This document shows positions 1 to 11,478 of a stretch of 64,000 bases of DNA, piece by piece. A program made the translations under genes and the position numbers. How positions within the stretch are numbered: position 1 is the stretch's first letter; each line of letters starts with the position of its first letter. Below the pieces are notes generated by a model that searched no databases, was not told the DNA's origin, and saw only the letters and a program-made list of their open reading frames with translations. Location of the stretch: positions 32,001-96,000 of the IMG/VR virus record IMGVR_UViG_2816332589_000001; one strand, written 5' to 3'. The DNA comes from a virus. Its lineage: Duplodnaviria; Caudoviricetes.

Positions 1-29
1 AGATCCACGACCTCTCACACGGCGACCTG

Positions 30-3000
30 GTGCGCGTGGAGGGAACCACCAAGCAAGGCACCCCGCGCACCCTGGCCGGGTACGTCGTGGACGGCCCGAA
101 GCAGATCCCGGCAACTCGCAACCACCGTACGCGAGACATGTACCGGGTTCTGATCGCGGACACCCCCAACGGCAAGGGCGCTCCGGTCTGGGTCATGCCC
201 GACGCAGCGGCGGCCCGCGCCACCCGAGACAACTCCGCCCAGGTCGAAGGCGCCCCGCATACCGGCGCGGACGCCGATGTCCTCGCCGGGCGCATCGCCG
301 ACACCGTCCCCACCGACCGCAACGGCAACGGCATCTTCCCCGGCTCGGTTGTCACCGACGCCGAAGGCAATGACGGGGTGGTTACCGGCGCAAGCGCCTC
401 CAGCGTCCGCGCACGGTTCGGCGACAGCCGCAGCGAAGAAGACCACTCCCCCACCTCGCTGCACGTCACCGACGGCGGCGCGGCCCGGCCCACCGGCTGG
501 ACGGGGGACGGCCACCGGGTACGGACCGGCAACGTCGTCGGCGAGAAGGACGGCACCATGCTCGGAACCGTCGAGGAGGTGGACGGCGACACCGCGACCG
601 TCGCCATCCCGGGCGGCATGTCCGAGCACCCGATCGGGGACCTGCGTGTCATCGGCGACACCAACAACGGCAACGACGGCAACAAGGTCACCACGGTTGA
701 ACCGGCGGACGCTGGCGAAGTGAAGGAAGGCGACGTGCTCGTGCGCGACACCCCCGAGGGGCCGCGCACCGCCCGGATCACCGGCCGCAGCGACGACGGC
801 GAACAGATCAACCTCGACCTGACGGACACCACCACCGGCGAGACCGACACCATGTCCGTCCCGTCCAGCGGCGGTGTACTGCGCGCCCGCGACGCCGACG
901 GCAACGCCCCCGACCTCGGCCCGGAGGACGGGCCGTCCGACAACGCCGAGATCACCAGCCACGAACCAGCCCCCGCGGTAGACCCCGTCGCCGGCCCGAC
1001 CGTGAACCCGCAGCTTTCCCCCGAGGAACGCGACGCCATCGCCGACCGGGGCCAGACCGCCACCGCGGACCCCGATGCCGAGCAGGCCGCTGCCCGCATC
1101 GCCAACGACCTGCCGGTCACTCCCGAGCAGGCGTCCGCACTCGCTGACGAACTGCGAGAGGGCGCCGACTCGGACACGGCGGATGGCCGGGCCGCGCGGC
1201 GGGCCGCCGACCACCTGGACGCCGCGGCCGGTAACGAACCCGACGGCGAAACGTCGAACGACCGCCCGGAGCCCGGCACGGTCGGCACCGTGGGCGTCGG
1301 CGACACGATCGCACTGCCCGACGAGTTCACCCCGGACACCCTGACCGCCTACCGCGTGGTGGACATCCAGGACGGCCCCGGCGGCGTACGGAGCCTGACC
1401 GTCGAGGACGGAGACGGACAGCGCTTCAAGCGGACCCTCGCCTCGGCGGACCCGCTGTACCAGCTCCCCGAGCCCGAGGCCCCGGCTGGCGATCCCGAGG
1501 CGGAGCCGCGTGACCCGAACCCGGCACCGGACCCGGACCGGCTCCGTGCCGACTACCGGGACGCAGTGGTGCGTGCCGTCATCGACAGCGCAGTTCAGGG
1601 CACCACCACCCCGGGCAGCGTCCACCAGCTCCGTGAGCAGATCGCCCAGCAGCTCACCCCCGAGGCCCTGCGCGCATCCATGCGCCGAGCCCGCAACGGG
1701 GCAGTCGCCGCGATCACGGATGCAGGGATCGAGGGGGACGACCGGGAGGCCCTGGTCCGATCCCTGCGGCGAGAAGCCGCTACCGCCCGTACGGACGCGA
1801 TCCGCGCAGCCCTGCGGACCCTGGACGACTTCGAAGCCCACGACGGCGAATCGGAAGAGGACACCGCCCGCCGCGCCGCCGATGCGCTCCGCCTGATCCC
1901 CGAGGCACTACGGAACCGGCCCAACGGAGACGACAACACCGACGGGGCACCGCACGCCAACGATGCCGTGACCCAGCACGCTGACGATGCGATCGCCGAA
2001 GCCCTCCGGGCCGCGGCCGCCGACGGACCGCTCACCGAAGAGCGCCGCGCCGCGATCATCGCGCAGCTCGCCGCCCGCCTGGCCGCCAACCGGGACGCCA
2101 CCGCACGCCAGATCGCGGAGAACCTCCCGGCCGGCCGACGCCCCGGCGTCATCGCGCACATCGTCGCCGGTCTCGCCCTGATCGCCCGCAAGATCGTCGC
2201 CATGGTCACTGCCTTCCTGAAGGCCCTCGCCAAGGGGTGGCAGCGCAGCCGCGAGGGCCTGCGTCGAATGCGCGAACGCCTCGCCCGGTTCCGCCGCAGC
2301 CTCGCCCAGCGAATCAGGACGTGGCCCGAGACCCGACGCCTTCGCCGCCTCGCCGCCGCCACGGACCTCCCGGGCCACGCGGACGGCCTCCCGCTCGGCG
2401 ACCGCATCGCCCACTGGACGCGCCTCCTCCCAGCCCCCGGCCGGTTCGGGCAGGTCTCCCGCCGGGCCCGCTGGTACCGGCCCGCAACCCGCTCGTCCCT
2501 GGCCAGCGGCCAACTCCCGCCCATCCAGGACGGTGTCCGCTGGACCATGGATCGGGCCGTGGACGGCGGCCCCGGCCCGCAGGCCCTGCGGCACCTGGCC
2601 GCGCTGCGCGCCGCCGGGCACGACGTGGACGCCGACGTGGCCACCCGGCTGTCGGCCGCGGCGCCGGAACTCGGCGACGACCCGCACGGCACCGTCCGGC
2701 ACGCCTCCCGGCACGCCGACAACGCCGAGCAGCGTCTACGGGACCTGGAGGCAGCGGCGGCCGGCGGCGCGCCGGACGCTGACCTGGAGATCGCAGCCGC
2801 CCGGGTCGAGGCCGAGACCGCACGGCAGGAGGCGGGGCGCCTTCAGCAGGCGTACGCCGCGGCGCTGCCCGCGGCCGTGCTCGACACCTTGGCTGGGATA
2901 CGCGAGATGGGACCGGGCACCACGGCCACGCTGGTGACCACCCCGGACAGCGACCCCGCCGCCGTCAGAGCGCTGAACGACATCGCGCGGTACGTTCCCC

Positions 3001-3395
3001 GGGACTGGCTGGCGCCGACGGAGGCGCGGTTCATCGGGGCCCGTGGCGGAGACGCCGGGGCGTACGACCCGCGTACCGCGACGGCGACCGTCGCAGACCT
3101 GGGTGACGGAGGCCAGCGGACGGCGGCGCACGCCCTGCTCGCGCACCTTCAGCAGCACTACCCGGACCTGCTCGCGGCGCAGGAGGCGTTCCACTTCACC
3201 CGCACCCACCGCGGACGAGTGGGGGCGCGGCGTCGTACGGAGCTGGACCAGCTCCTCGCGCGGCTGTTCCGCAACCGCACAAACGGCGACGGTGACGACC
3301 TGGTGCCGCTCGGCCTCGCGACGCTGTTCTCGGGCGACTGGTACGAGGACGACGACCTGCGAGCGTTCCTCCTCGGACTGCTCGCCACCCGGTAG
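30..3395 (+). CDS. C-terminal part (5' end probably outside the window) of a giant head-associated/polyvalent protein with SH3/KOW-like repeats and a degenerate zincin-like C-terminus
   Basis: 1121-aa open frame with typical high-GC codon bias, upstream of the protease/capsid genes. C-terminus reads AAHALLAHLQQH...LVPLGLATLF...DLRAFLLGLLA. Confidence 0.7.
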   Translation: MRVEGTTKQGTPRTLAGYVVDGPKQIPATRNHRTRDMYRVLIADTPNGKGAPVWVMPDAAAARATRDNSAQVEGAPHTGADADVLAGRIADTVPTDRNGNGIFPGSVVTDAEGNDGVVTGASASSVRARFGDSRSEEDHSPTSLHVTDGGAARPTGWTGDGHRVRTGNVVGEKDGTMLGTVEEVDGDTATVAIPGGMSEHPIGDLRVIGDTNNGNDGNKVTTVEPADAGEVKEGDVLVRDTPEGPRTARITGRSDDGEQINLDLTDTTTGETDTMSVPSSGGVLRARDADGNAPDLGPEDGPSDNAEITSHEPAPAVDPVAGPTVNPQLSPEERDAIADRGQTATADPDAEQAAARIANDLPVTPEQASALADELREGADSDTADGRAARRAADHLDAAAGNEPDGETSNDRPEPGTVGTVGVGDTIALPDEFTPDTLTAYRVVDIQDGPGGVRSLTVEDGDGQRFKRTLASADPLYQLPEPEAPAGDPEAEPRDPNPAPDPDRLRADYRDAVVRAVIDSAVQGTTTPGSVHQLREQIAQQLTPEALRASMRRARNGAVAAITDAGIEGDDREALVRSLRREAATARTDAIRAALRTLDDFEAHDGESEEDTARRAADALRLIPEALRNRPNGDDNTDGAPHANDAVTQHADDAIAEALRAAAADGPLTEERRAAIIAQLAARLAANRDATARQIAENLPAGRRPGVIAHIVAGLALIARKIVAMVTAFLKALAKGWQRSREGLRRMRERLARFRRSLAQRIRTWPETRRLRRLAAATDLPGHADGLPLGDRIAHWTRLLPAPGRFGQVSRRARWYRPATRSSLASGQLPPIQDGVRWTMDRAVDGGPGPQALRHLAALRAAGHDVDADVATRLSAAAPELGDDPHGTVRHASRHADNAEQRLRDLEAAAAGGAPDADLEIAAARVEAETARQEAGRLQQAYAAALPAAVLDTLAGIREMGPGTTATLVTTPDSDPAAVRALNDIARYVPRDWLAPTEARFIGARGGDAGAYDPRTATATVADLGDGGQRTAAHALLAHLQQHYPDLLAAQEAFHFTRTHRGRVGARRRTELDQLLARLFRNRTNGDGDDLVPLGLATLFSGDWYEDDDLRAFLLGLLATR

Positions 3396-4267: not shown

Positions 4268-4516
4268 TCACACCGTGATCGTGAACACCCATAGGTGAGC
4301 GTCGGGGCCGGAGATGATCACGTAATGGATGATCGCGCTGCGTGTCGTGACGACGCGCACCGACTCGTCCATCTCGTACTTGTCGGCCTGCGGCCACGAC
4401 CACGGGTCACCACAGGCTTGCAGCACCGCAGTGTGCAGTTCTTCTCGCGCGGGCGCCGGTAGATCGCGGATCGTCTGGCCGACGTTGGCCGCGAACCGGG
4501 CGGGGATCGCGCTCAC
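4268..4516 (-). CDS. Putative RelE/ParE-like toxin
   Basis: 82 aa; GTG start overlaps the antitoxin stop (GTGA); helix followed by beta-rich IIHYVI...LWVF pattern. Confidence 0.55.
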   Translation of the reverse strand: MSAIPARFAANVGQTIRDLPAPAREELHTAVLQACGDPWSWPQADKYEMDESVRVVTTRSAIIHYVIISGPDAHLWVFTITV

Positions 4517-4755
4517 CGACCGAAGACCTCCGCCATGGACATTGCGCCGTCTTCCGGACGCCCCTCGTTGTTCCACCGGCGGTACGCGAAGCTCGCCAGC
4601 ACCGCGGCCCGGTCCGCGCGGTCAGTGCCCTTCATCGCCTGCGCGGCGGCGAGCACCGATGCCACGTACTCATTCACCGCCAGCCCATGCTGCGCGGCGG
4701 ACTCAGCGACCTGTTCCGCCAGCCGCTCATCTATCGACACCGTCAGCTCCGTCAT
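4513..4755 (-). CDS. Putative ribbon-helix-helix antitoxin
   Basis: N-terminal ELTVSIDERLAEQV...GLAVNEYV RHH-like pattern and C-terminal MSMAEVF; upstream of the toxin-like ORF. Confidence 0.6.
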   Translation of the reverse strand: MTELTVSIDERLAEQVAESAAQHGLAVNEYVASVLAAAQAMKGTDRADRAAVLASFAYRRWNNEGRPEDGAMSMAEVFGR

Positions 4756-5520: not shown

Positions 5521-5606
5521 CGACCGAGCCAGCGAGCGCAGGACGTTAGCCCCCCGGCGAGGGCACGGTGCGCACCGTCCGAGACGCCCGCCAGGAGGAA
5601 CCCGCC

Positions 5607-7862
5607 GTGCCCCGCACCCCGCCGCCCAGCCCACCGGCCCGCCGCAGCCCCACCGGCAAGGGCATAGCCCGCGCCATCTACGCCGTGACGGGTGTGGTGG
5701 ACGAGGTCAACGATCTCATCGTGCCGGGGGCCTTCGCCCGCACCCTCGCCACCCGCCGCGTGAAGACGGTCTGGCATCACGACTGGAAAGACCCGGTCGG
5801 CACGGTGCTGGACGTAGAGGAGTGGAAGCCGGGCGACCCCCGTTTCGCGACCATCCCCGGCGGCAGCATGTGGCCGGCCGCCGCCGGGGCGCTCGTCGCG
5901 ACAGTCCAGTACAACCTGCGCACGATCCGCGGCCGGGACGCCTACGAGCAGGTAGACCAGTGGCACAAGAACAACGAGGCCGCGTTCAGCATCGGATACA
6001 AGGTCGTCCCCGGCGGCGCGGCCAAGCGGCACGACGGCGTCAGGGTCATCCACGACCTGGAGCTGTACGAGATCAGCCCGGTACTGCACGGCGCCCACCC
6101 CATGACGCGCAGCATCGAGGTCAAGGCCGCCGCCCGTACAGGCGACGACGATCTGGAACGCAAAGCGACGTGGTCAACGGTCGAACTGAAGGCAGCGGAG
6201 ACGCAGACCGGCCGCGGTGTGATGGTGGCGCTGCGTCTCCCGCCCGACGTGGCCGCGAAGATCGCGCATCCTGAGGGCACGCCGGCGGAACACCTGCACA
6301 TCACGCTCGCCTACCTCGGTGACGCCGCCGCGCTCAGCGAAATCCCTGACGATCTGCACGGCATCGTCGCTCCCTCCGTCGCCGGCACGGCACCGCTGAA
6401 GGGCACCATCGGCGGCATCGGGCGCTTTCCCGACACCGGCGACGGCGAACCCACCTGGGTTCCCGTGGACGTGCCGGGCCTGGCAGAACTGCGGCAACGC
6501 GTCGTGGAAGCCCTGGGCGCCTCCGCGTACGCCGACAAGCTGAACACGCAGCACGGATACACCCCGCACGTCACCCTCGGCTACGCGCTGCCCGAGGTCG
6601 CGCCGGTCCCGGCCACCCCCGTCACCTTCGACCAGGTCGCTATCGTGCGCGGGGCGGACACCTCCTTCGTCCCTCTCGGCCAGCCCGCAGCCCCGGCCCC
6701 CTCCGCAGAGGAGCCGGCCGACGACACTGCTGCTCCCTCGGCCGCCGTCCCCCCGGCCGAGGTGAAGTCAGCCGCGCAGATCGTGCTGGAGGCCAAGGGC
6801 GCCGGCCCCGACGCCCACCGCGGCGACGCCGAACAACTCCGCAAGTGGTACGCCCACGGTGAGGGCGCGGCCCGCATCGGCTGGGGTGCGCGCGGCGACT
6901 TCGACCGCTGTGTGGCCATCGCCGCCCAGCACATGAGTCCCGACGACGCCAAGGGCTACTGCAACCTCCGCCACCACGACGCCCTAGGGATCTACCCGGC
7001 CACCCACGCCGCCGCCGAACGGAAGTCAGCCGCACAGGTCGTACTCGAAGCGAAGTCGCACCCGCTCCCGAAAGCAGAGCCCATGTCCCCGATCTCCCCC
7101 ATGCCCCTGTCCTACGAGCAACTCCACGCCCGGATCGCGGAGGCCGCCCGCAACCTACTCACCGAAGACGGTGACGACTGCTACGTGGCTGTCGAGGCGA
7201 CCTACCCCGACCACGTCATCGTCACCCGGTACTCCCCAGGTGACAGCTCCACCTACTCCATCCCCTACACGGCCGCTGGCCGCGACATCGACCTCGGCAC
7301 ACCCAGTCAGGTCGAGCTGACCACCGTGGCGCTGCCCGTCACCGGCGAATCGCACGCCGTGGACGGCGACGAGGAGATCACTGCCCGGTACATGCAGCCC
7401 ACCGCTGCCGCCCTCCAGGACGCCACCGCCCTCATCGAGGTCTCCGACGCGGGCCCGGAACACCTTCAGCATCTGAAGCCGACCATCACCGACCTCCTCA
7501 CCACCCTCGCGAAGAAGGGCCTCCCCATGAGCAAGCAGACCACCGCCCCGTCCGGCTCCTCTTTGGACCTGTGGGACTCCGAGTACGACGTCACCGACGG
7601 CTGGGACGACGACACCGACGACACGGACGCTGCCGAGGACGCCGAAGGTACCGAGGGCGCCGCGACGGAGGACACCAGCACGCCGACGGCCGCCGACGGC
7701 TCCACGGCCGCTGACAGCAACGTCCCGGCGGCCACCCCCGACGACACGGGCCCCGTACCGGCCGCCCAGGAGCCCGACACCGACGATGAGGACGAGGACG
7801 ACGAGCAGGTCCGGCTGAACGCGGACGAGGTCAAAGCCGTGCTCGCTGCGCTATCCCTCTGA
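5607..7862 (+). CDS. HK97-family prohead protease fused to a 2H phosphoesterase domain and further C-terminal domains
   Basis: Protease motifs VWHHD, FSIGY and LYEISPV; 2H motifs HITL and PHVTL; AGGAGG RBS; immediately upstream of the capsid gene. Confidence 0.85.
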   Translation: MPRTPPPSPPARRSPTGKGIARAIYAVTGVVDEVNDLIVPGAFARTLATRRVKTVWHHDWKDPVGTVLDVEEWKPGDPRFATIPGGSMWPAAAGALVATVQYNLRTIRGRDAYEQVDQWHKNNEAAFSIGYKVVPGGAAKRHDGVRVIHDLELYEISPVLHGAHPMTRSIEVKAAARTGDDDLERKATWSTVELKAAETQTGRGVMVALRLPPDVAAKIAHPEGTPAEHLHITLAYLGDAAALSEIPDDLHGIVAPSVAGTAPLKGTIGGIGRFPDTGDGEPTWVPVDVPGLAELRQRVVEALGASAYADKLNTQHGYTPHVTLGYALPEVAPVPATPVTFDQVAIVRGADTSFVPLGQPAAPAPSAEEPADDTAAPSAAVPPAEVKSAAQIVLEAKGAGPDAHRGDAEQLRKWYAHGEGAARIGWGARGDFDRCVAIAAQHMSPDDAKGYCNLRHHDALGIYPATHAAAERKSAAQVVLEAKSHPLPKAEPMSPISPMPLSYEQLHARIAEAARNLLTEDGDDCYVAVEATYPDHVIVTRYSPGDSSTYSIPYTAAGRDIDLGTPSQVELTTVALPVTGESHAVDGDEEITARYMQPTAAALQDATALIEVSDAGPEHLQHLKPTITDLLTTLAKKGLPMSKQTTAPSGSSLDLWDSEYDVTDGWDDDTDDTDAAEDAEGTEGAATEDTSTPTAADGSTAADSNVPAATPDDTGPVPAAQEPDTDDEDEDDEQVRLNADEVKAVLAALSL

Positions 7863-8026: not shown

Positions 8027-9340
8027 ATGGCTACCGCCACCAACGACAAGAGCCTCGTTCGGAGCCTGAAGACGCAGCTCGCCGAGAAGAGCGCGGAGGC
8101 CGAGCGGATCGCAGGCACCTTCAAGGAGGAGAACGGCTCCTTCATCGTCTCGACCGAGCAGCGCAACGCGTACGTCAAGGCCGTCAAGGACGCCCAGGAG
8201 ATCAAGGGTCTCCTCGACGCCGCCCAGGGCGCCGACACCCTGAACAGCTACCTGGACGCGCCCGCCGGAACCCCGGCGGCCGGCCAGCATTACGGCGGCA
8301 CGGGCGGCCCGGCCGGAGTCGAGGCGAAGAGCCTCGGTGACCTGTTCGTGGAGTCCGACGCCTACCAGCGCGCCGCGGCCAGCGACTTCAAGGACCGGCC
8401 GTTCATCCGCGCCGAGGTCGAGGGCAAGTCCATCTTCTCGCTGTCCGCCGGCACCCACACCCACCAGGCCCTCGGTGGCGTGCAGGACCTCGGCATCACC
8501 GAGGCCCAGCGCCGCAAGTGGCACATCCGAGATCTGTTCCCGAGCGCCAAGACCAAGAACGCCGTCCTGCTCGGCATCCGCGAGACCGGGTGGGTCAACA
8601 ACGCGGCCCAGGTGCCGGAGCGTCGGGCGGCCGACGGCGTGTCCGCGCCGACCGGCCTCGACACGGACGTGTTCGGCCGGGCGCCCCGCTCGAAGCTGAA
8701 GCTGGAGCCGGTCGCGTTCCCCATCGCGGAGATCGCCCACATGATCGACGGCCACAAGAACATCCTCTCGGACGAGCCGCGGCTGAAGCAGTTCATCAAC
8801 TCGCGGCTCATCGAGGGGATCAAGTTCGCCGAGGACTACGACCTGCTTCACAGCAGCGGCGCCGACGGCACGTCCCTCACGGGCCTGTTCAACACGCCGG
8901 GCGTGCAGACCTACACCGGCGACAAGAAGGACAAGTTCTCCATCCAGATGCGCCGGGCCATGACAAAGGCTCTGCTCGCCGAATACGAGCCGACCGGCGT
9001 CGTTCTCTCCCCGTCGATGTGGGAGCACGTGGAAATCGAGACGGACGATACCGGGGCGTTCCGTGTCGCGCTCCAGGTCGCCGTCGGCGCGGAAAAGCGC
9101 GTCTGGAGGCTGAACGTGGTCGAAACCACGGCGATGCCGGACAACAACTACCTCCTGGGCTCGTTCGGTATGGGCGCGCAGCTCTACGACCGGGAGAACG
9201 TCTCCGTCACCGTCTCCTCGGAGAACAGCGACAACTTCGAGCGGGGCGTCCTGACGTTCCGAGCTGACGAGCGGCTTGCCCTGGAGGTCAGCAGGCCCGA
9301 GTCCTTCGTGATCGGTACGTGGACCGCTCCGGCCGCCTGA
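8027..9340 (+). CDS. Major capsid protein, HK97 fold
   Basis: N-terminal coiled-coil delta domain; EAK/SLG processing-like site; C-terminal FERGVLTFRADERLALEVSRPESF. Confidence 0.92.
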   Translation: MATATNDKSLVRSLKTQLAEKSAEAERIAGTFKEENGSFIVSTEQRNAYVKAVKDAQEIKGLLDAAQGADTLNSYLDAPAGTPAAGQHYGGTGGPAGVEAKSLGDLFVESDAYQRAAASDFKDRPFIRAEVEGKSIFSLSAGTHTHQALGGVQDLGITEAQRRKWHIRDLFPSAKTKNAVLLGIRETGWVNNAAQVPERRAADGVSAPTGLDTDVFGRAPRSKLKLEPVAFPIAEIAHMIDGHKNILSDEPRLKQFINSRLIEGIKFAEDYDLLHSSGADGTSLTGLFNTPGVQTYTGDKKDKFSIQMRRAMTKALLAEYEPTGVVLSPSMWEHVEIETDDTGAFRVALQVAVGAEKRVWRLNVVETTAMPDNNYLLGSFGMGAQLYDRENVSVTVSSENSDNFERGVLTFRADERLALEVSRPESFVIGTWTAPAA

Positions 9341-9415: not shown

Positions 9416-9685
9416 GTGGCAGACACAAACGGGCTGATCGCGGCCCTCACCCAGCTCTCCGACGCGCCACCGGCGCCGCGCGGCCCGCGCTGCACGGTCG
9501 GCGCCATCCTCGATGCGCTCGATGCCGCCACGGCGCAGAAGGTCCGGGACGTGCTCGATACCCGGGACATCAGCGCCACCCAGATCGCCGACACCCTGAC
9601 CGCCAGCGGCCACCGCGTGCAGGCCCCGGCCGTCGCCCGGCACCGGCGGCGCGGCGCGTCCAACGGATGCAGGTGCCCGCGATGA
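9416..9685 (+). CDS. Small Cys/His-containing HTH-like protein
   Basis: CTVG...VARHRR...CRC; GAGAGGA RBS; overlaps the next gene (ATGA). Confidence 0.65.
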   Translation: MADTNGLIAALTQLSDAPPAPRGPRCTVGAILDALDAATAQKVRDVLDTRDISATQIADTLTASGHRVQAPAVARHRRRGASNGCRCPR

Positions 9686-10995: not shown

Positions 10996-11478
10996 ATGGG
11001 CCTCTACAACGCGGCCGGCGACCGCATCACCAAGGCCGCCTTCCCTGCCACCGCGGTCACCGACCCGGAGAAGACGATCACCGCCGACGTGTACGCGACG
11101 CGTCCGTACGATGTCGGCACCCGCCCGAGCGACACCCGCGACGGTGTGCCGGAGGGCAGCATCAAGACGCTCCTGTTCAAGGCCGGTGCGGTCGTTCGTC
11201 AGTCGCAGATCGACAAGTTGTTCCCCCCGGCCACCATCGCCTCCGTCAGCCCGGCGACCGGCCCGGCCGCGGGCGGCACCGTGGTCACGATCACCGGCAC
11301 CAACCTCGACGGCGTCGCCGACGTGAAGTTCGGCAGCACCGCGGCAACGAACCTGAAGGTGCTCTCTGCCGGGCGCCTCCAGGTCACCACCCCGGCCGGT
11401 ACGGCGGGCGCCGTCGCGGTCGTCGTCGGCGACGAGGCAGGCGCGGTCACCAAGGCCAACGGCTTCACCTACGCCTGA
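10996..11478 (+). CDS. IPT/TIG (Ig-like) domain virion protein
   Basis: IASVSPATGPAAGGTVVTITGTNL...FTY is a typical TIG pattern. Confidence 0.85.
   Translation: MGLYNAAGDRITKAAFPATAVTDPEKTITADVYATRPYDVGTRPSDTRDGVPEGSIKTLLFKAGAVVRQSQIDKLFPPATIASVSPATGPAAGGTVVTITGTNLDGVADVKFGSTAATNLKVLSAGRLQVTTPAGTAGAVAVVVGDEAGAVTKANGFTYA

Follow-up and report, generated by a model that had tools for sequence, protein, structure and literature searches.

A stretch of 64,000 nucleotides (the window: bases 32,001–96,000 of the virus record IMGVR_UViG_2816332589_000001) carries a gene at 5607–7862 that joins an S78 prohead serine protease, a 2H phosphoesterase, a Cys/His module and further C-terminal elements in one chain, which we call the polyprotein. 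The record, from a large Streptomyces phage, is a 136,928-bp virus genome that has direct terminal repeats and is rated complete; the GC content of the window is ∼70%. Streptomyces phage Gilgamesh (129 kb) is the nearest isolated relative, and Gilgamesh and the window have in common the order giant gene, small genes, polyprotein gene, major capsid gene, small gene and metallophosphoesterase gene. An identical 751-aa protein is present in the database (P0003). The parts of the polyprotein gene and the capsid gene that follows it are listed below; residue n of the polyprotein starts at 5607 + 3(n − 1), and a slash within a site marks the bond presumed to be cut.

5593–5599, plus strand: Shine–Dalgarno-like AGGAGGA, read from the sequence, 7 nt 5′ of the GTG start
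5607–7862, plus strand: polyprotein open reading frame (ORF), 751 aa plus stop; the likely start codon is the GTG at 5607
5646–6131, plus strand: D1, S78 prohead serine protease, residues 14–175 (Pfam PF04586, BLASTP against HK97 gp4, invariant columns, AlphaFold2 model)
6120–6200, plus strand: linker 1, with sites IEVK173/A, LERK186/A and VELK195/A (Lys codons 6123, 6162 and 6189); disordered in the model
6201–6713, plus strand: D2, 2H phosphoesterase, residues 199–369, with HITL at 6297–6308 and HVTL at 6567–6578 (PF13563)
6714–6824, plus strand: linker 2, residues 370–406, with sites AEVK387/S and LEAK397/G (Lys codons 6765 and 6795); first copy of a 59-nt repeat
6825–7001, plus strand: D3, helical Cys/His module, residues 407–465 (WGARGDFDRC...GYCNLRH; phrog_6439; predicted local distance difference test score, pLDDT, 86–93 in the AlphaFold2 model)
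7002–7088, plus strand: linker 3, residues 466–494, with sites AERK473/S and LEAK483/S (Lys codons 7023 and 7053); second copy of the 59-nt repeat
7089–7538, plus strand: D4, a folded alpha+beta domain followed by two long helices, residues 495–644 (AlphaFold2); specific to the polyprotein family
7539–7814, plus strand: acidic disordered stretch, residues 645–736 (pLDDT < 50 over most of it)
7815–7859, plus strand: conserved C-terminal helix (739–750), with the eighth site DEVK743/A (Lys codon 7833)
8027–9340, plus strand: major capsid protein, HK97 fold with an N-terminal delta domain (Pfam Phage_capsid), with sites VEAK101/S and VEGK134/S (Lys codons 8327 and 8426)

The AlphaFold2 model of the whole polyprotein was built on 120 homologs and reached a mean pLDDT of 74; the homologs were the best 120 of 301 relatives, 48–80% identical to the query, nearly all from Streptomyces and many on contigs of 121–138 kb. 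A second model, covering residues 398–650 (pLDDT 83), confirmed the Cys/His module and D4, while the linker at residues 176–198 and most of linkers 2 and 3 had pLDDT values below 50. D1 passed the family threshold of PF04586 (Peptidase_S78; 42.2 bits against a cut-off of 21) and matched HK97 gp4 in BLASTP (E 4e-8), with His58 aligned with HK97 gp4 His65, which we take to be the catalytic residue. Ser128, within FSIGY, is invariant in the 120 sequences; pairwise BLAST did not set it on the serine of HK97 MSVGF. In PHROGs, the chain matched head-maturation-protease families whose profiles contain the 2H part (phrog_18402, and phrog_2659, which is labelled RNA ligase), and phrog_6439, whose label gives no function, covers the Cys/His stretch. 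Elsewhere the family is loosely labelled, its database names including ‘2′-5′ RNA ligase family protein’, ‘hydrolase’ and ‘HK97 family phage prohead protease’.

An earlier note on this DNA had listed the ORF and its motifs and had ended the chain in an acidic C-terminal domain. The ORF is real, HITL, HVTL, WGARGDFDRC...GYCNLRH and FSIGY are all present, and the S78 and 2H domains score above their Pfam cut-offs. The description of the C-terminal part was right as far as the acidic stretch at 645–736 goes, but the same region also holds the confidently folded D4 (495–644) and the conserved helix (739–750), in which E741, V742, K743, A744, L746 and A747 show conservation of 90% or more among the 120 homologs. 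The fragment 484–743 has a pI of 4.1. Among phage records the sole match to D4 is in Gilgamesh, and a Foldseek search of the Protein Data Bank (PDB) with D3 and D4 gave no match at E ≤ 1e-3. A likeness of D4 to cystatin, VirB8 and NTF2-like chains was considered and set aside: the best VIA Z was 7.1, over model residues 100–175 only and in the range of common arrangements, and no function was drawn from it.

The polyprotein contains eight E-x-K-[A/S/G] sites, which account for 8 of its 25 lysines (K173, K186, K195, K387, K397, K473, K483 and K743). Seven of them fall within the three linkers or on their margins, and the eighth, K743, belongs to the terminal helix. The seven sites quoted in the earlier note were all found, and the eighth (DEVK/AV, near the C-terminus) is added here; the note had also assigned the motifs to the first three junctions, where they do occur, but the three sites that follow the protease share one linker and do not mark three junctions. 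A census of E.K[AST] over 84 ORFs of the complete genome, chosen by third-position GC, gave 17 matches per 947 lysines. Of these, the polyprotein and the capsid protein together (48 lysines) hold nine, as against eight for all other ORFs (899 lysines); in the tape-measure-sized and giant ORFs the count is zero or two. The E-x-K sites of the polyprotein are more frequent than expected by chance.

The sites are also conserved. Lys is present in 103–120 of the 120 homologs at the eight sites, and Glu in 102–120 at the six sites whose Glu column stayed in alignment register; K173 and K186 are found in 120/120 and K195 in 112/120. Position P2 and the flanking linker residues are variable, as is seen at the K186 site, where E and K are present in 120/120 homologs while P2 is H in 67, R in 41 and Y in 7. 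In order to count sites by junction, 177 distinct proteins, drawn from the homolog set and from a species scan (one genome per species, giving 63 loci), were split into modules by BLAST against the window modules and the NUDIX segment described below, and a junction was scored if it held at least one E.K[ASTG] site. Such a site was present at 150/150 protease–2H, 55/55 2H–Cys/His, 94/94 2H–D4, 21/21 protease–NUDIX, 19/19 NUDIX–D4, 7/7 NUDIX–Cys/His, 4/4 Cys/His–NUDIX, 1/1 2H–NUDIX and 63/64 Cys/His–D4 junctions, and at 2/6 protease–Cys/His junctions. Between D4 and the terminal segment the count was 0/123, the site falling within the terminal segment itself. The density of E.K[ASTG] was 839 per 22,698 residues in linkers versus 304 per 89,448 residues in domains, and most of the 304 domain sites are the protease-end and terminal-helix sites.

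The same core marks the capsid protein, which matches HK97 gp5 (BLASTP E 3e-34). As the earlier note had read, VEAK101/SLG and VEGK134/SIF stand at the end of the delta domain; 58 of the 59 distinct related capsid proteins retain them, and both sites are invariant in an alignment of 46 sequences. The HK97 capsid protein is cut at the Lys103-Ser104 bond. Our alignment pairs 133-GKSIFSLSAG of the window protein with 97-GAKTFNKSLG of HK97, so that K134/S135 precedes by five residues the position that pairs with HK97 K103/S104, which is the end of the 102-residue scaffold domain (PMC12749128). The core is found in a more distant S78 protease as well: in gp13 of Brevibacterium phage Cantare, the acidic C-terminal part contains five E-x-K/[G,S,T] sites, and the Cantare capsid protein carries MEAK/SLG.

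What lies between the linkers differs among relatives. Three of the 63 loci were left out because they had no ORF after the filter; among the 60 species-level loci with a recognisable gene, 35 carry a 2H domain in the slot after the protease, 19 carry a NUDIX domain, one has both (L038), one has neither (L053) and four encode shorter, protease-only forms. Gilgamesh gp52, annotated ‘hydrolase’, is a NUDIX form in which the linkers, D4 and tail are the same. The Nudix box is intact, by eye, in the NUDIX-form sequences. As to the substrate of the NUDIX cargo, NCBIfam matches were all far under their cut-offs, and PDB sequence matches were mixed (MutT, ADP-ribose pyrophosphatase and Ap4A hydrolase). 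A quick maximum-likelihood tree of 58 capsid proteins places the 20 NUDIX carriers in a single group (Shimodaira–Hasegawa-like approximate likelihood ratio test, SH-aLRT, 87) that is nested among the carriers of 2H. All the cargo states on this tree can be accounted for by three changes, indicating that replacement between 2H and NUDIX has been rare and was probably a single event. A slot that is exchangeable or empty in relatives fits an accessory cargo, and the 2H domain is best read, from these comparisons, as such a cargo and not as a morphogenetic part.

The Cys/His module behaves differently from this slot, with 15 changes on the capsid-protein tree. It is bracketed by a 59-nt direct repeat (6739–6797 and 6997–7055), whose copies share 75% identity and lie 258 nt (86 codons) apart; if the copies recombined, the module would be lost with the frame intact, which fits its 15 gains or losses. 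The module (W-G-x-x-G-D-F-x-R-C ... G-x-C-N-x-x-H) was found by tblastn in 219 actinophage records, either inside genes for capsid maturation proteases, protease–MuF fusions or portals, or as a small free ORF; in Cantare gp12 it stands at the head of a LysM protein. An Atlas search with the module returned only unnamed small proteins (0.89).

The repeat bears on whether the motif is a protease recognition site at all, as it might instead be a by-product of linker duplication and of module insertion by recombination. The linkers around the Cys/His module do form a duplicated 59-nt unit, in frame and 258 nt apart, and the module has often been gained and lost on the 58-row tree. However, E and K have been retained in the repeat copies although these are only 75% identical in DNA; the three post-protease sites and the two capsid sites share with them the E-x-K/[S,A] core only, not the repeat; and the core recurs in Cantare, where the linkers are unrelated. 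We consider it very improbable that the motif arose as such a by-product. The proposal of the earlier note, that this is a polyprotein punctuated by putative self-cleavage sites, is borne out by the comparison, in the low pLDDT of the linkers, the junction counts and the exchangeable slot; as far as sequence can tell, there is good support for a polyprotein whose putative self-cleavage sites are conserved and whose cargo is an accessory enzyme.

We next consider what the enzyme might do. The 2H domain scored 51.6 bits against PF13563 (2_5_RNA_ligase2; cut-off 27), and in its HxT motifs, H231-I-T233 and H321-V-T323, all four His and Thr residues are at least 90% conserved in the 120 sequences. 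A search of PDB sequences with the single protein had as its sole match the Deinococcus RNA 2′,3′-cyclic phosphodiesterase 5h7e. A family profile of the 2H domain found 5h7e (1.7e-6), 1vdx, 2fyh and 1iuh, the ThpR/LigT-class chains lying between 1.7e-6 and 0.02, and no Acb1 chain at E ≤ 10. In Foldseek, ranks 1–19 were all of the ThpR/LigT class (E 1.2e-7 to 5e-5, template modelling (TM) score up to 0.69), with 5h7e at the top (E 1.2e-7, TM 0.68) and 1iuh and 5ldm next. These were followed by the rotavirus VP3 2′-5′ phosphodiesterase (1.3e-4), by Acb1 (7t26) at rank 28 (E 8e-4, TM 0.61) and, below Acb1, by the Burkholderia phage phosphodiesterase 9q2g (1.2e-3); a literature search for the BCSR5 phage phosphodiesterase found nothing. 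A specific likeness to Acb1, for which the earlier note had suggested a Foldseek comparison with Acb1 and LigT, is not supported by these searches. From profile and modelled fold, the 2H domain appears to be a divergent member of the ThpR/LigT branch, outside the Acb1 group. Its chemistry is probably most like that of ThpR/LigT, namely the hydrolysis of 2′,3′-cyclic phosphate ends or of related nucleotide phosphoesters, and it most likely serves to dampen a host response based on RNA or nucleotides.

One form that such a use could take is RNA end-healing, in which the domain would act on the 2′,3′-cyclic phosphate ends left by host anticodon nucleases, HEPN RNases or toxins, with repair of the RNA or an altered fate of the cleaved RNA as the result. 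The closest sequence and fold matches are indeed RNA 2′,3′-cyclic phosphodiesterases (5h7e, 1iuh and 1vdx) and LigT (5ldm), and the best NCBIfam match is TIGR02258 (RNA 2′,3′-cyclic phosphodiesterase). The TIGR02258 score, however, is 29.3, far under the cut-off of 65.7, so that the domain is not a ThpR equivalog. Moreover, the complete phage genome has no match to RtcB (PF01139) or RNA_ligase (PF09414), and so encodes no sealing step, which weakens the RNA-repair function that the earlier note had offered as an option. The polyprotein 2H is also the only 2H domain in the genome. Both observations agree with the account of Iyer et al. (PMC5512222, section 20), according to which the 2H domains that phages fuse to head proteins, as in polyvalent proteins, never associate with RNA ligases; the role proposed in that section is that of an RNase, or the breakdown of 2′-5′ or cyclic nucleotide signals. 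RNA end-healing seems an unlikely, though not a far-fetched, function for the domain.

A more pointed use would make trigger and antidote one polypeptide. Prohead protease activity would set off signalling by the anti-phage system based on cyclic oligonucleotide signals (CBASS) or its like, and an Acb1-like 2H domain, fused to the protease for that reason, would destroy the signal that the host makes on sensing it. In a broader form of the same idea the protease chain is a vehicle that loads and unloads itself, the tail bringing in tens of copies and the protease freeing a 2H or NUDIX counter-defence cargo. That prohead proteases can trigger CBASS, as the earlier note had stated, is in print: CD-NTases are activated through cleavage by prohead proteases (PMC12991175; 10.1101/2023.05.21.541620). 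Acb1 is itself a 2H enzyme with a structure, 7t26, that is a fold match; head-fused phage 2H domains have been proposed to degrade nucleotide signals (Iyer et al., PMC5512222); and a 1:1 fusion of protease and 2H would match the two in timing and dose. Against this, chains of the ThpR/LigT class match the family profile at 1.7e-6 to 0.02 while no Acb1 chain does so at E ≤ 10, and the Acb1 fold ranks behind both the ThpR/LigT enzymes and the rotavirus VP3 phosphodiesterase. The relatives argue in the same direction. NUDIX enzymes would probably not cleave the phosphodiester bonds in cyclic oligonucleotides, and the presence of NUDIX in place of 2H at 19/60 loci implies that the slot is not dedicated to them. 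The anti-CBASS idea is speculative and an Acb1-like antidote a minority possibility; we doubt both the specific and the broader form, somewhat more than we doubt RNA end-healing.

Our preferred reading is that the gene encodes a self-processing head-maturation polyprotein, which carries an accessory enzyme into the prohead and frees it there; we put its probability at roughly 0.6. The modules are separated by the motif of the predicted maturation sites of the capsid protein, so that the protease probably frees the enzyme inside the head. The C-terminal tail of HK97 gp4 directs that protease into the prohead. By analogy, the whole polyprotein would co-assemble into the prohead through its C-terminal end, the candidate capsid-targeting element being the conserved C-terminal helix, perhaps together with D4. 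The N-terminal S78 protease would then become active and cut after Lys in [L/I/V/A]-E-x-K/[S/A/T/G], both in the capsid protein at the end of the delta domain and in every linker of its own chain, as the sharing and conservation of the motif suggest. The predicted products are a 19.0-kDa protease, a 19.4-kDa 2H enzyme, an 8.2-kDa Cys/His fragment, a 27.4-kDa acidic D4 fragment and peptides of ∼1 kDa. A folded enzyme that has no internal sites and is too large for the capsid pores probably stays in the head; to judge from the internal proteins of T4 and phiKZ, it would enter the next host with the DNA and act there on an RNA- or nucleotide-based host response. Protease copy numbers of ∼60 per HK97 Prohead 1 and ∼90 per D3 Prohead 1 are given in PMC12749128. 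Packaging of the cargo in the head is plausible on this analysis; the entry of the chain into the prohead, and the retention and injection of the enzyme, are the weakest steps. The 5,644-aa protein encoded upstream, polyvalent-like in composition, is a point of context in favour of the preferred reading.

Alternatively, the fusion might serve expression only, the enzyme working late in the cytoplasm of the producing cell, with the E-x-K sites merely dismantling the protease chain to clear the head for DNA and nothing useful reaching the next host. HK97-type proteases digest themselves after maturation, as this account would have it. Late and abundant expression would suit the countering of a late-acting defence, and prohead proteases are reported to be active outside heads (PMC12991175). 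On the other hand, a cargo that lacks internal sites would leave a folded fragment of ∼19 kDa, unlike the scaffold peptides that exit the head; it lies between the protease and the conserved tail and would be drawn in with them if the tail targets the head; and the sites flank each module precisely, at every junction. We regard expression alone as an improbable explanation, on a par with RNA end-healing.

Several observations weigh against packaging and release of an enzyme by a self-processing polyprotein. Beyond the anatomy of the chain, that reading is inferred throughout. The activity of prohead proteases in the cytoplasm (PMC12991175) means that release could occur outside the head. D1 scores 43.1 against the NCBIfam HK97 protease equivalog TIGR01543, under the cut-off of 59, and the 2H domain falls short of TIGR02258 as described above. 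The HK97 boundary has no Glu at P3, making the E-x-K rule clade-specific and extrapolated. The 120 homologs are one fairly close family, from Streptomyces and kin, so that part of the conservation reflects shared ancestry, and part of the motif count reflects the duplication of the unit that forms the linkers on both sides of the Cys/His module. Four of the six protease–Cys/His junctions have no site inside the boundaries used, and the three changes that suffice on the capsid-protein tree make cargo exchange a rare event.

Further genes of the neighbourhood were surveyed. The gene 5′ of the polyprotein gene is one open frame of 5,644 aa (window 1–3395; genome 18461–35395; locus L069), with Gilgamesh gp48 as its counterpart. 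Its first half has a weak match to Eco57I-type methylases together with SNF2/ResIII and Helicase_C matches, and no domain was recognised in its second half; the composition resembles that of head-packaged anti-restriction proteins such as P1 DarB, and of polyvalent proteins as described in PMC5512222. This protein was also considered as another multiply cut substrate and rejected, E.K[ASTG] occurring only three times per 203 lysines. Amid the plus-strand head genes, two small overlapping ORFs of 102 and 80 aa lie on the minus strand (4271–4576 and 4516–4755); they have no Pfam or PHROG match, and their layout recalls a toxin–antitoxin or regulator pair.

Between the capsid and connector genes, the plus-strand gene at 9682–10926 matches phrog_284 (‘exonuclease’; E 1.6e-56) and has no Pfam match at E ≤ 0.01. 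Its counterpart is Gilgamesh gp55, annotated metallophosphoesterase, and it constitutes a second enzyme within the head module. Directly after the head enzymes, the plus-strand gene at 10996–11475 encodes a product of 160 aa that has an IPT/TIG (Ig-like) domain at its C-terminal end and may be a capsid decoration protein. Relatives of the phage (loci L003–L061) are common in Streptomyces and Kitasatospora assemblies, where many are separate contigs of 121–138 kb; one (L034) is deposited as a complete plasmid of 135,349 bp, and others lie inside multi-megabase contigs. The separate contigs, the plasmid record and the copies in large contigs suggest a phage-plasmid or carrier lifestyle.

If the preferred reading is true, trimming the capsid is not the sole task of the head-maturation proteases in a large group of Streptomyces phages and phage-like elements: they also load an exchangeable enzyme into the head and set it free, which would be a third loading route for injected proteins beside targeting leaders of the T4 type and MuF or portal fusions. 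It would also define a recognition motif for this S78 clade, [L/I/V/A]-E-x-K/[S/A/T/G], from which substrates could be predicted and with which foreign cargo could be loaded into HK97-type heads. As prohead proteases have recently been reported as a cue for CBASS, the fusion of protease and phosphoesterase is a direct, testable candidate for a matched countermeasure. The practical gain is that the loosely named database entries can be read correctly.

The known system nearest to the window is that of HK97 gp4 and gp5. The protease domains are homologous (E 4e-8) with the His aligned, the protease gene lies in both directly 5′ of the gene for an HK97-fold capsid protein with an N-terminal delta domain, and both capsid boundaries contain K/SLG, a Lys-Ser bond followed by Leu-Gly. 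In contrast, gp4 has 225 aa and no enzyme insert, whereas the window protein has 751 aa and three extra folded modules, and the window sites need Glu at P3 where the HK97 boundary has none.

Internal head proteins processed by a protease are known from T4 (IPI-III and Alt, with protease gp21) and phiKZ (protease gp175). Their cargo is encoded by a separate gene and has a short targeting leader, and the protease, of another family, cuts at L/I-x-E or S/A/G-x-E sites. As in those phages, the window cargo is bounded by the motif that the head protease presumably uses in capsid maturation, and is expected to remain in the head and then be injected; unlike theirs, it lies within the protease chain, and the targeting signal is presumably the C-terminal tail of the protease itself. 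The packaging of Alt is described in PMC5512222, as are polyvalent proteins and MuF–2H or portal–2H fusions, in which effectors fused to phage head proteins are predicted to be packaged and injected, and in which peptidase domains are proposed to release modules. The window chain is similar in having several unrelated effector-type domains (protease, 2H, Cys/His and D4) beside the capsid gene. It differs in that the 2H carriers named in that source are MuF and portal proteins and the releasing peptidases MPTases (metallopeptidase domains); in its main text ‘prohead protease’ occurs only within a reference title, although its supplementary architecture files may list such fusions.

The likeness to Acb1 (7t26, 7t27) lies in a phage-encoded 2H fold with two HxT motifs, and in the fold match at E 8e-4 and TM 0.61; ThpR/LigT enzymes are closer, and no sequence profile links the two. 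Acb1 is, besides, a free-standing protein and not part of a head protein. Single genes that combine several functions of head assembly are frequent in actinophages, as in protease–scaffold–capsid and MuF–protease genes (PMC7302621, PMC5513430), but the fusions described in the text of these reports join morphogenetic parts, with no mention there of a 2H- or NUDIX-type enzyme in the protease gene. A 2H domain within a gene annotated as capsid maturation protease is also seen in Arthrobacter phage Edmundo (gp18) and in Gordonia phage Tiamoceli (gp18). Edmundo gp18 (locus L067, 3330–4439) is an independent fusion, in which the 2H domain is N-terminal, a Peptidase_S78_2 (XkdF-type) domain is C-terminal and E-x-K sites are absent; in sister phages the gene is annotated ‘aldolase class I’, ‘RNA ligase’ or ‘capsid maturation protease’. 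Tiamoceli gp18 has 950 aa, with the 2H domain mid-chain among other modules. These two genes indicate that unions of 2H and protease recur in actinophages.

Literature searches for protease–2H, protease–LigT or protease–NUDIX fusions, or for Gilgamesh, did not find the arrangement described here, which the supplements of PMC5512222 could list. The separate components are familiar: the S78 protease, both kinds of enzyme (2H and NUDIX), internal head proteins processed by a protease in T4 and phiKZ, and effectors fused to MuF or portal proteins. The difference lies in the carrier, in which the presumed cargo sits inside the protease chain, between the catalytic domain and the conserved tail, and is bounded by the protease's own presumed sites.

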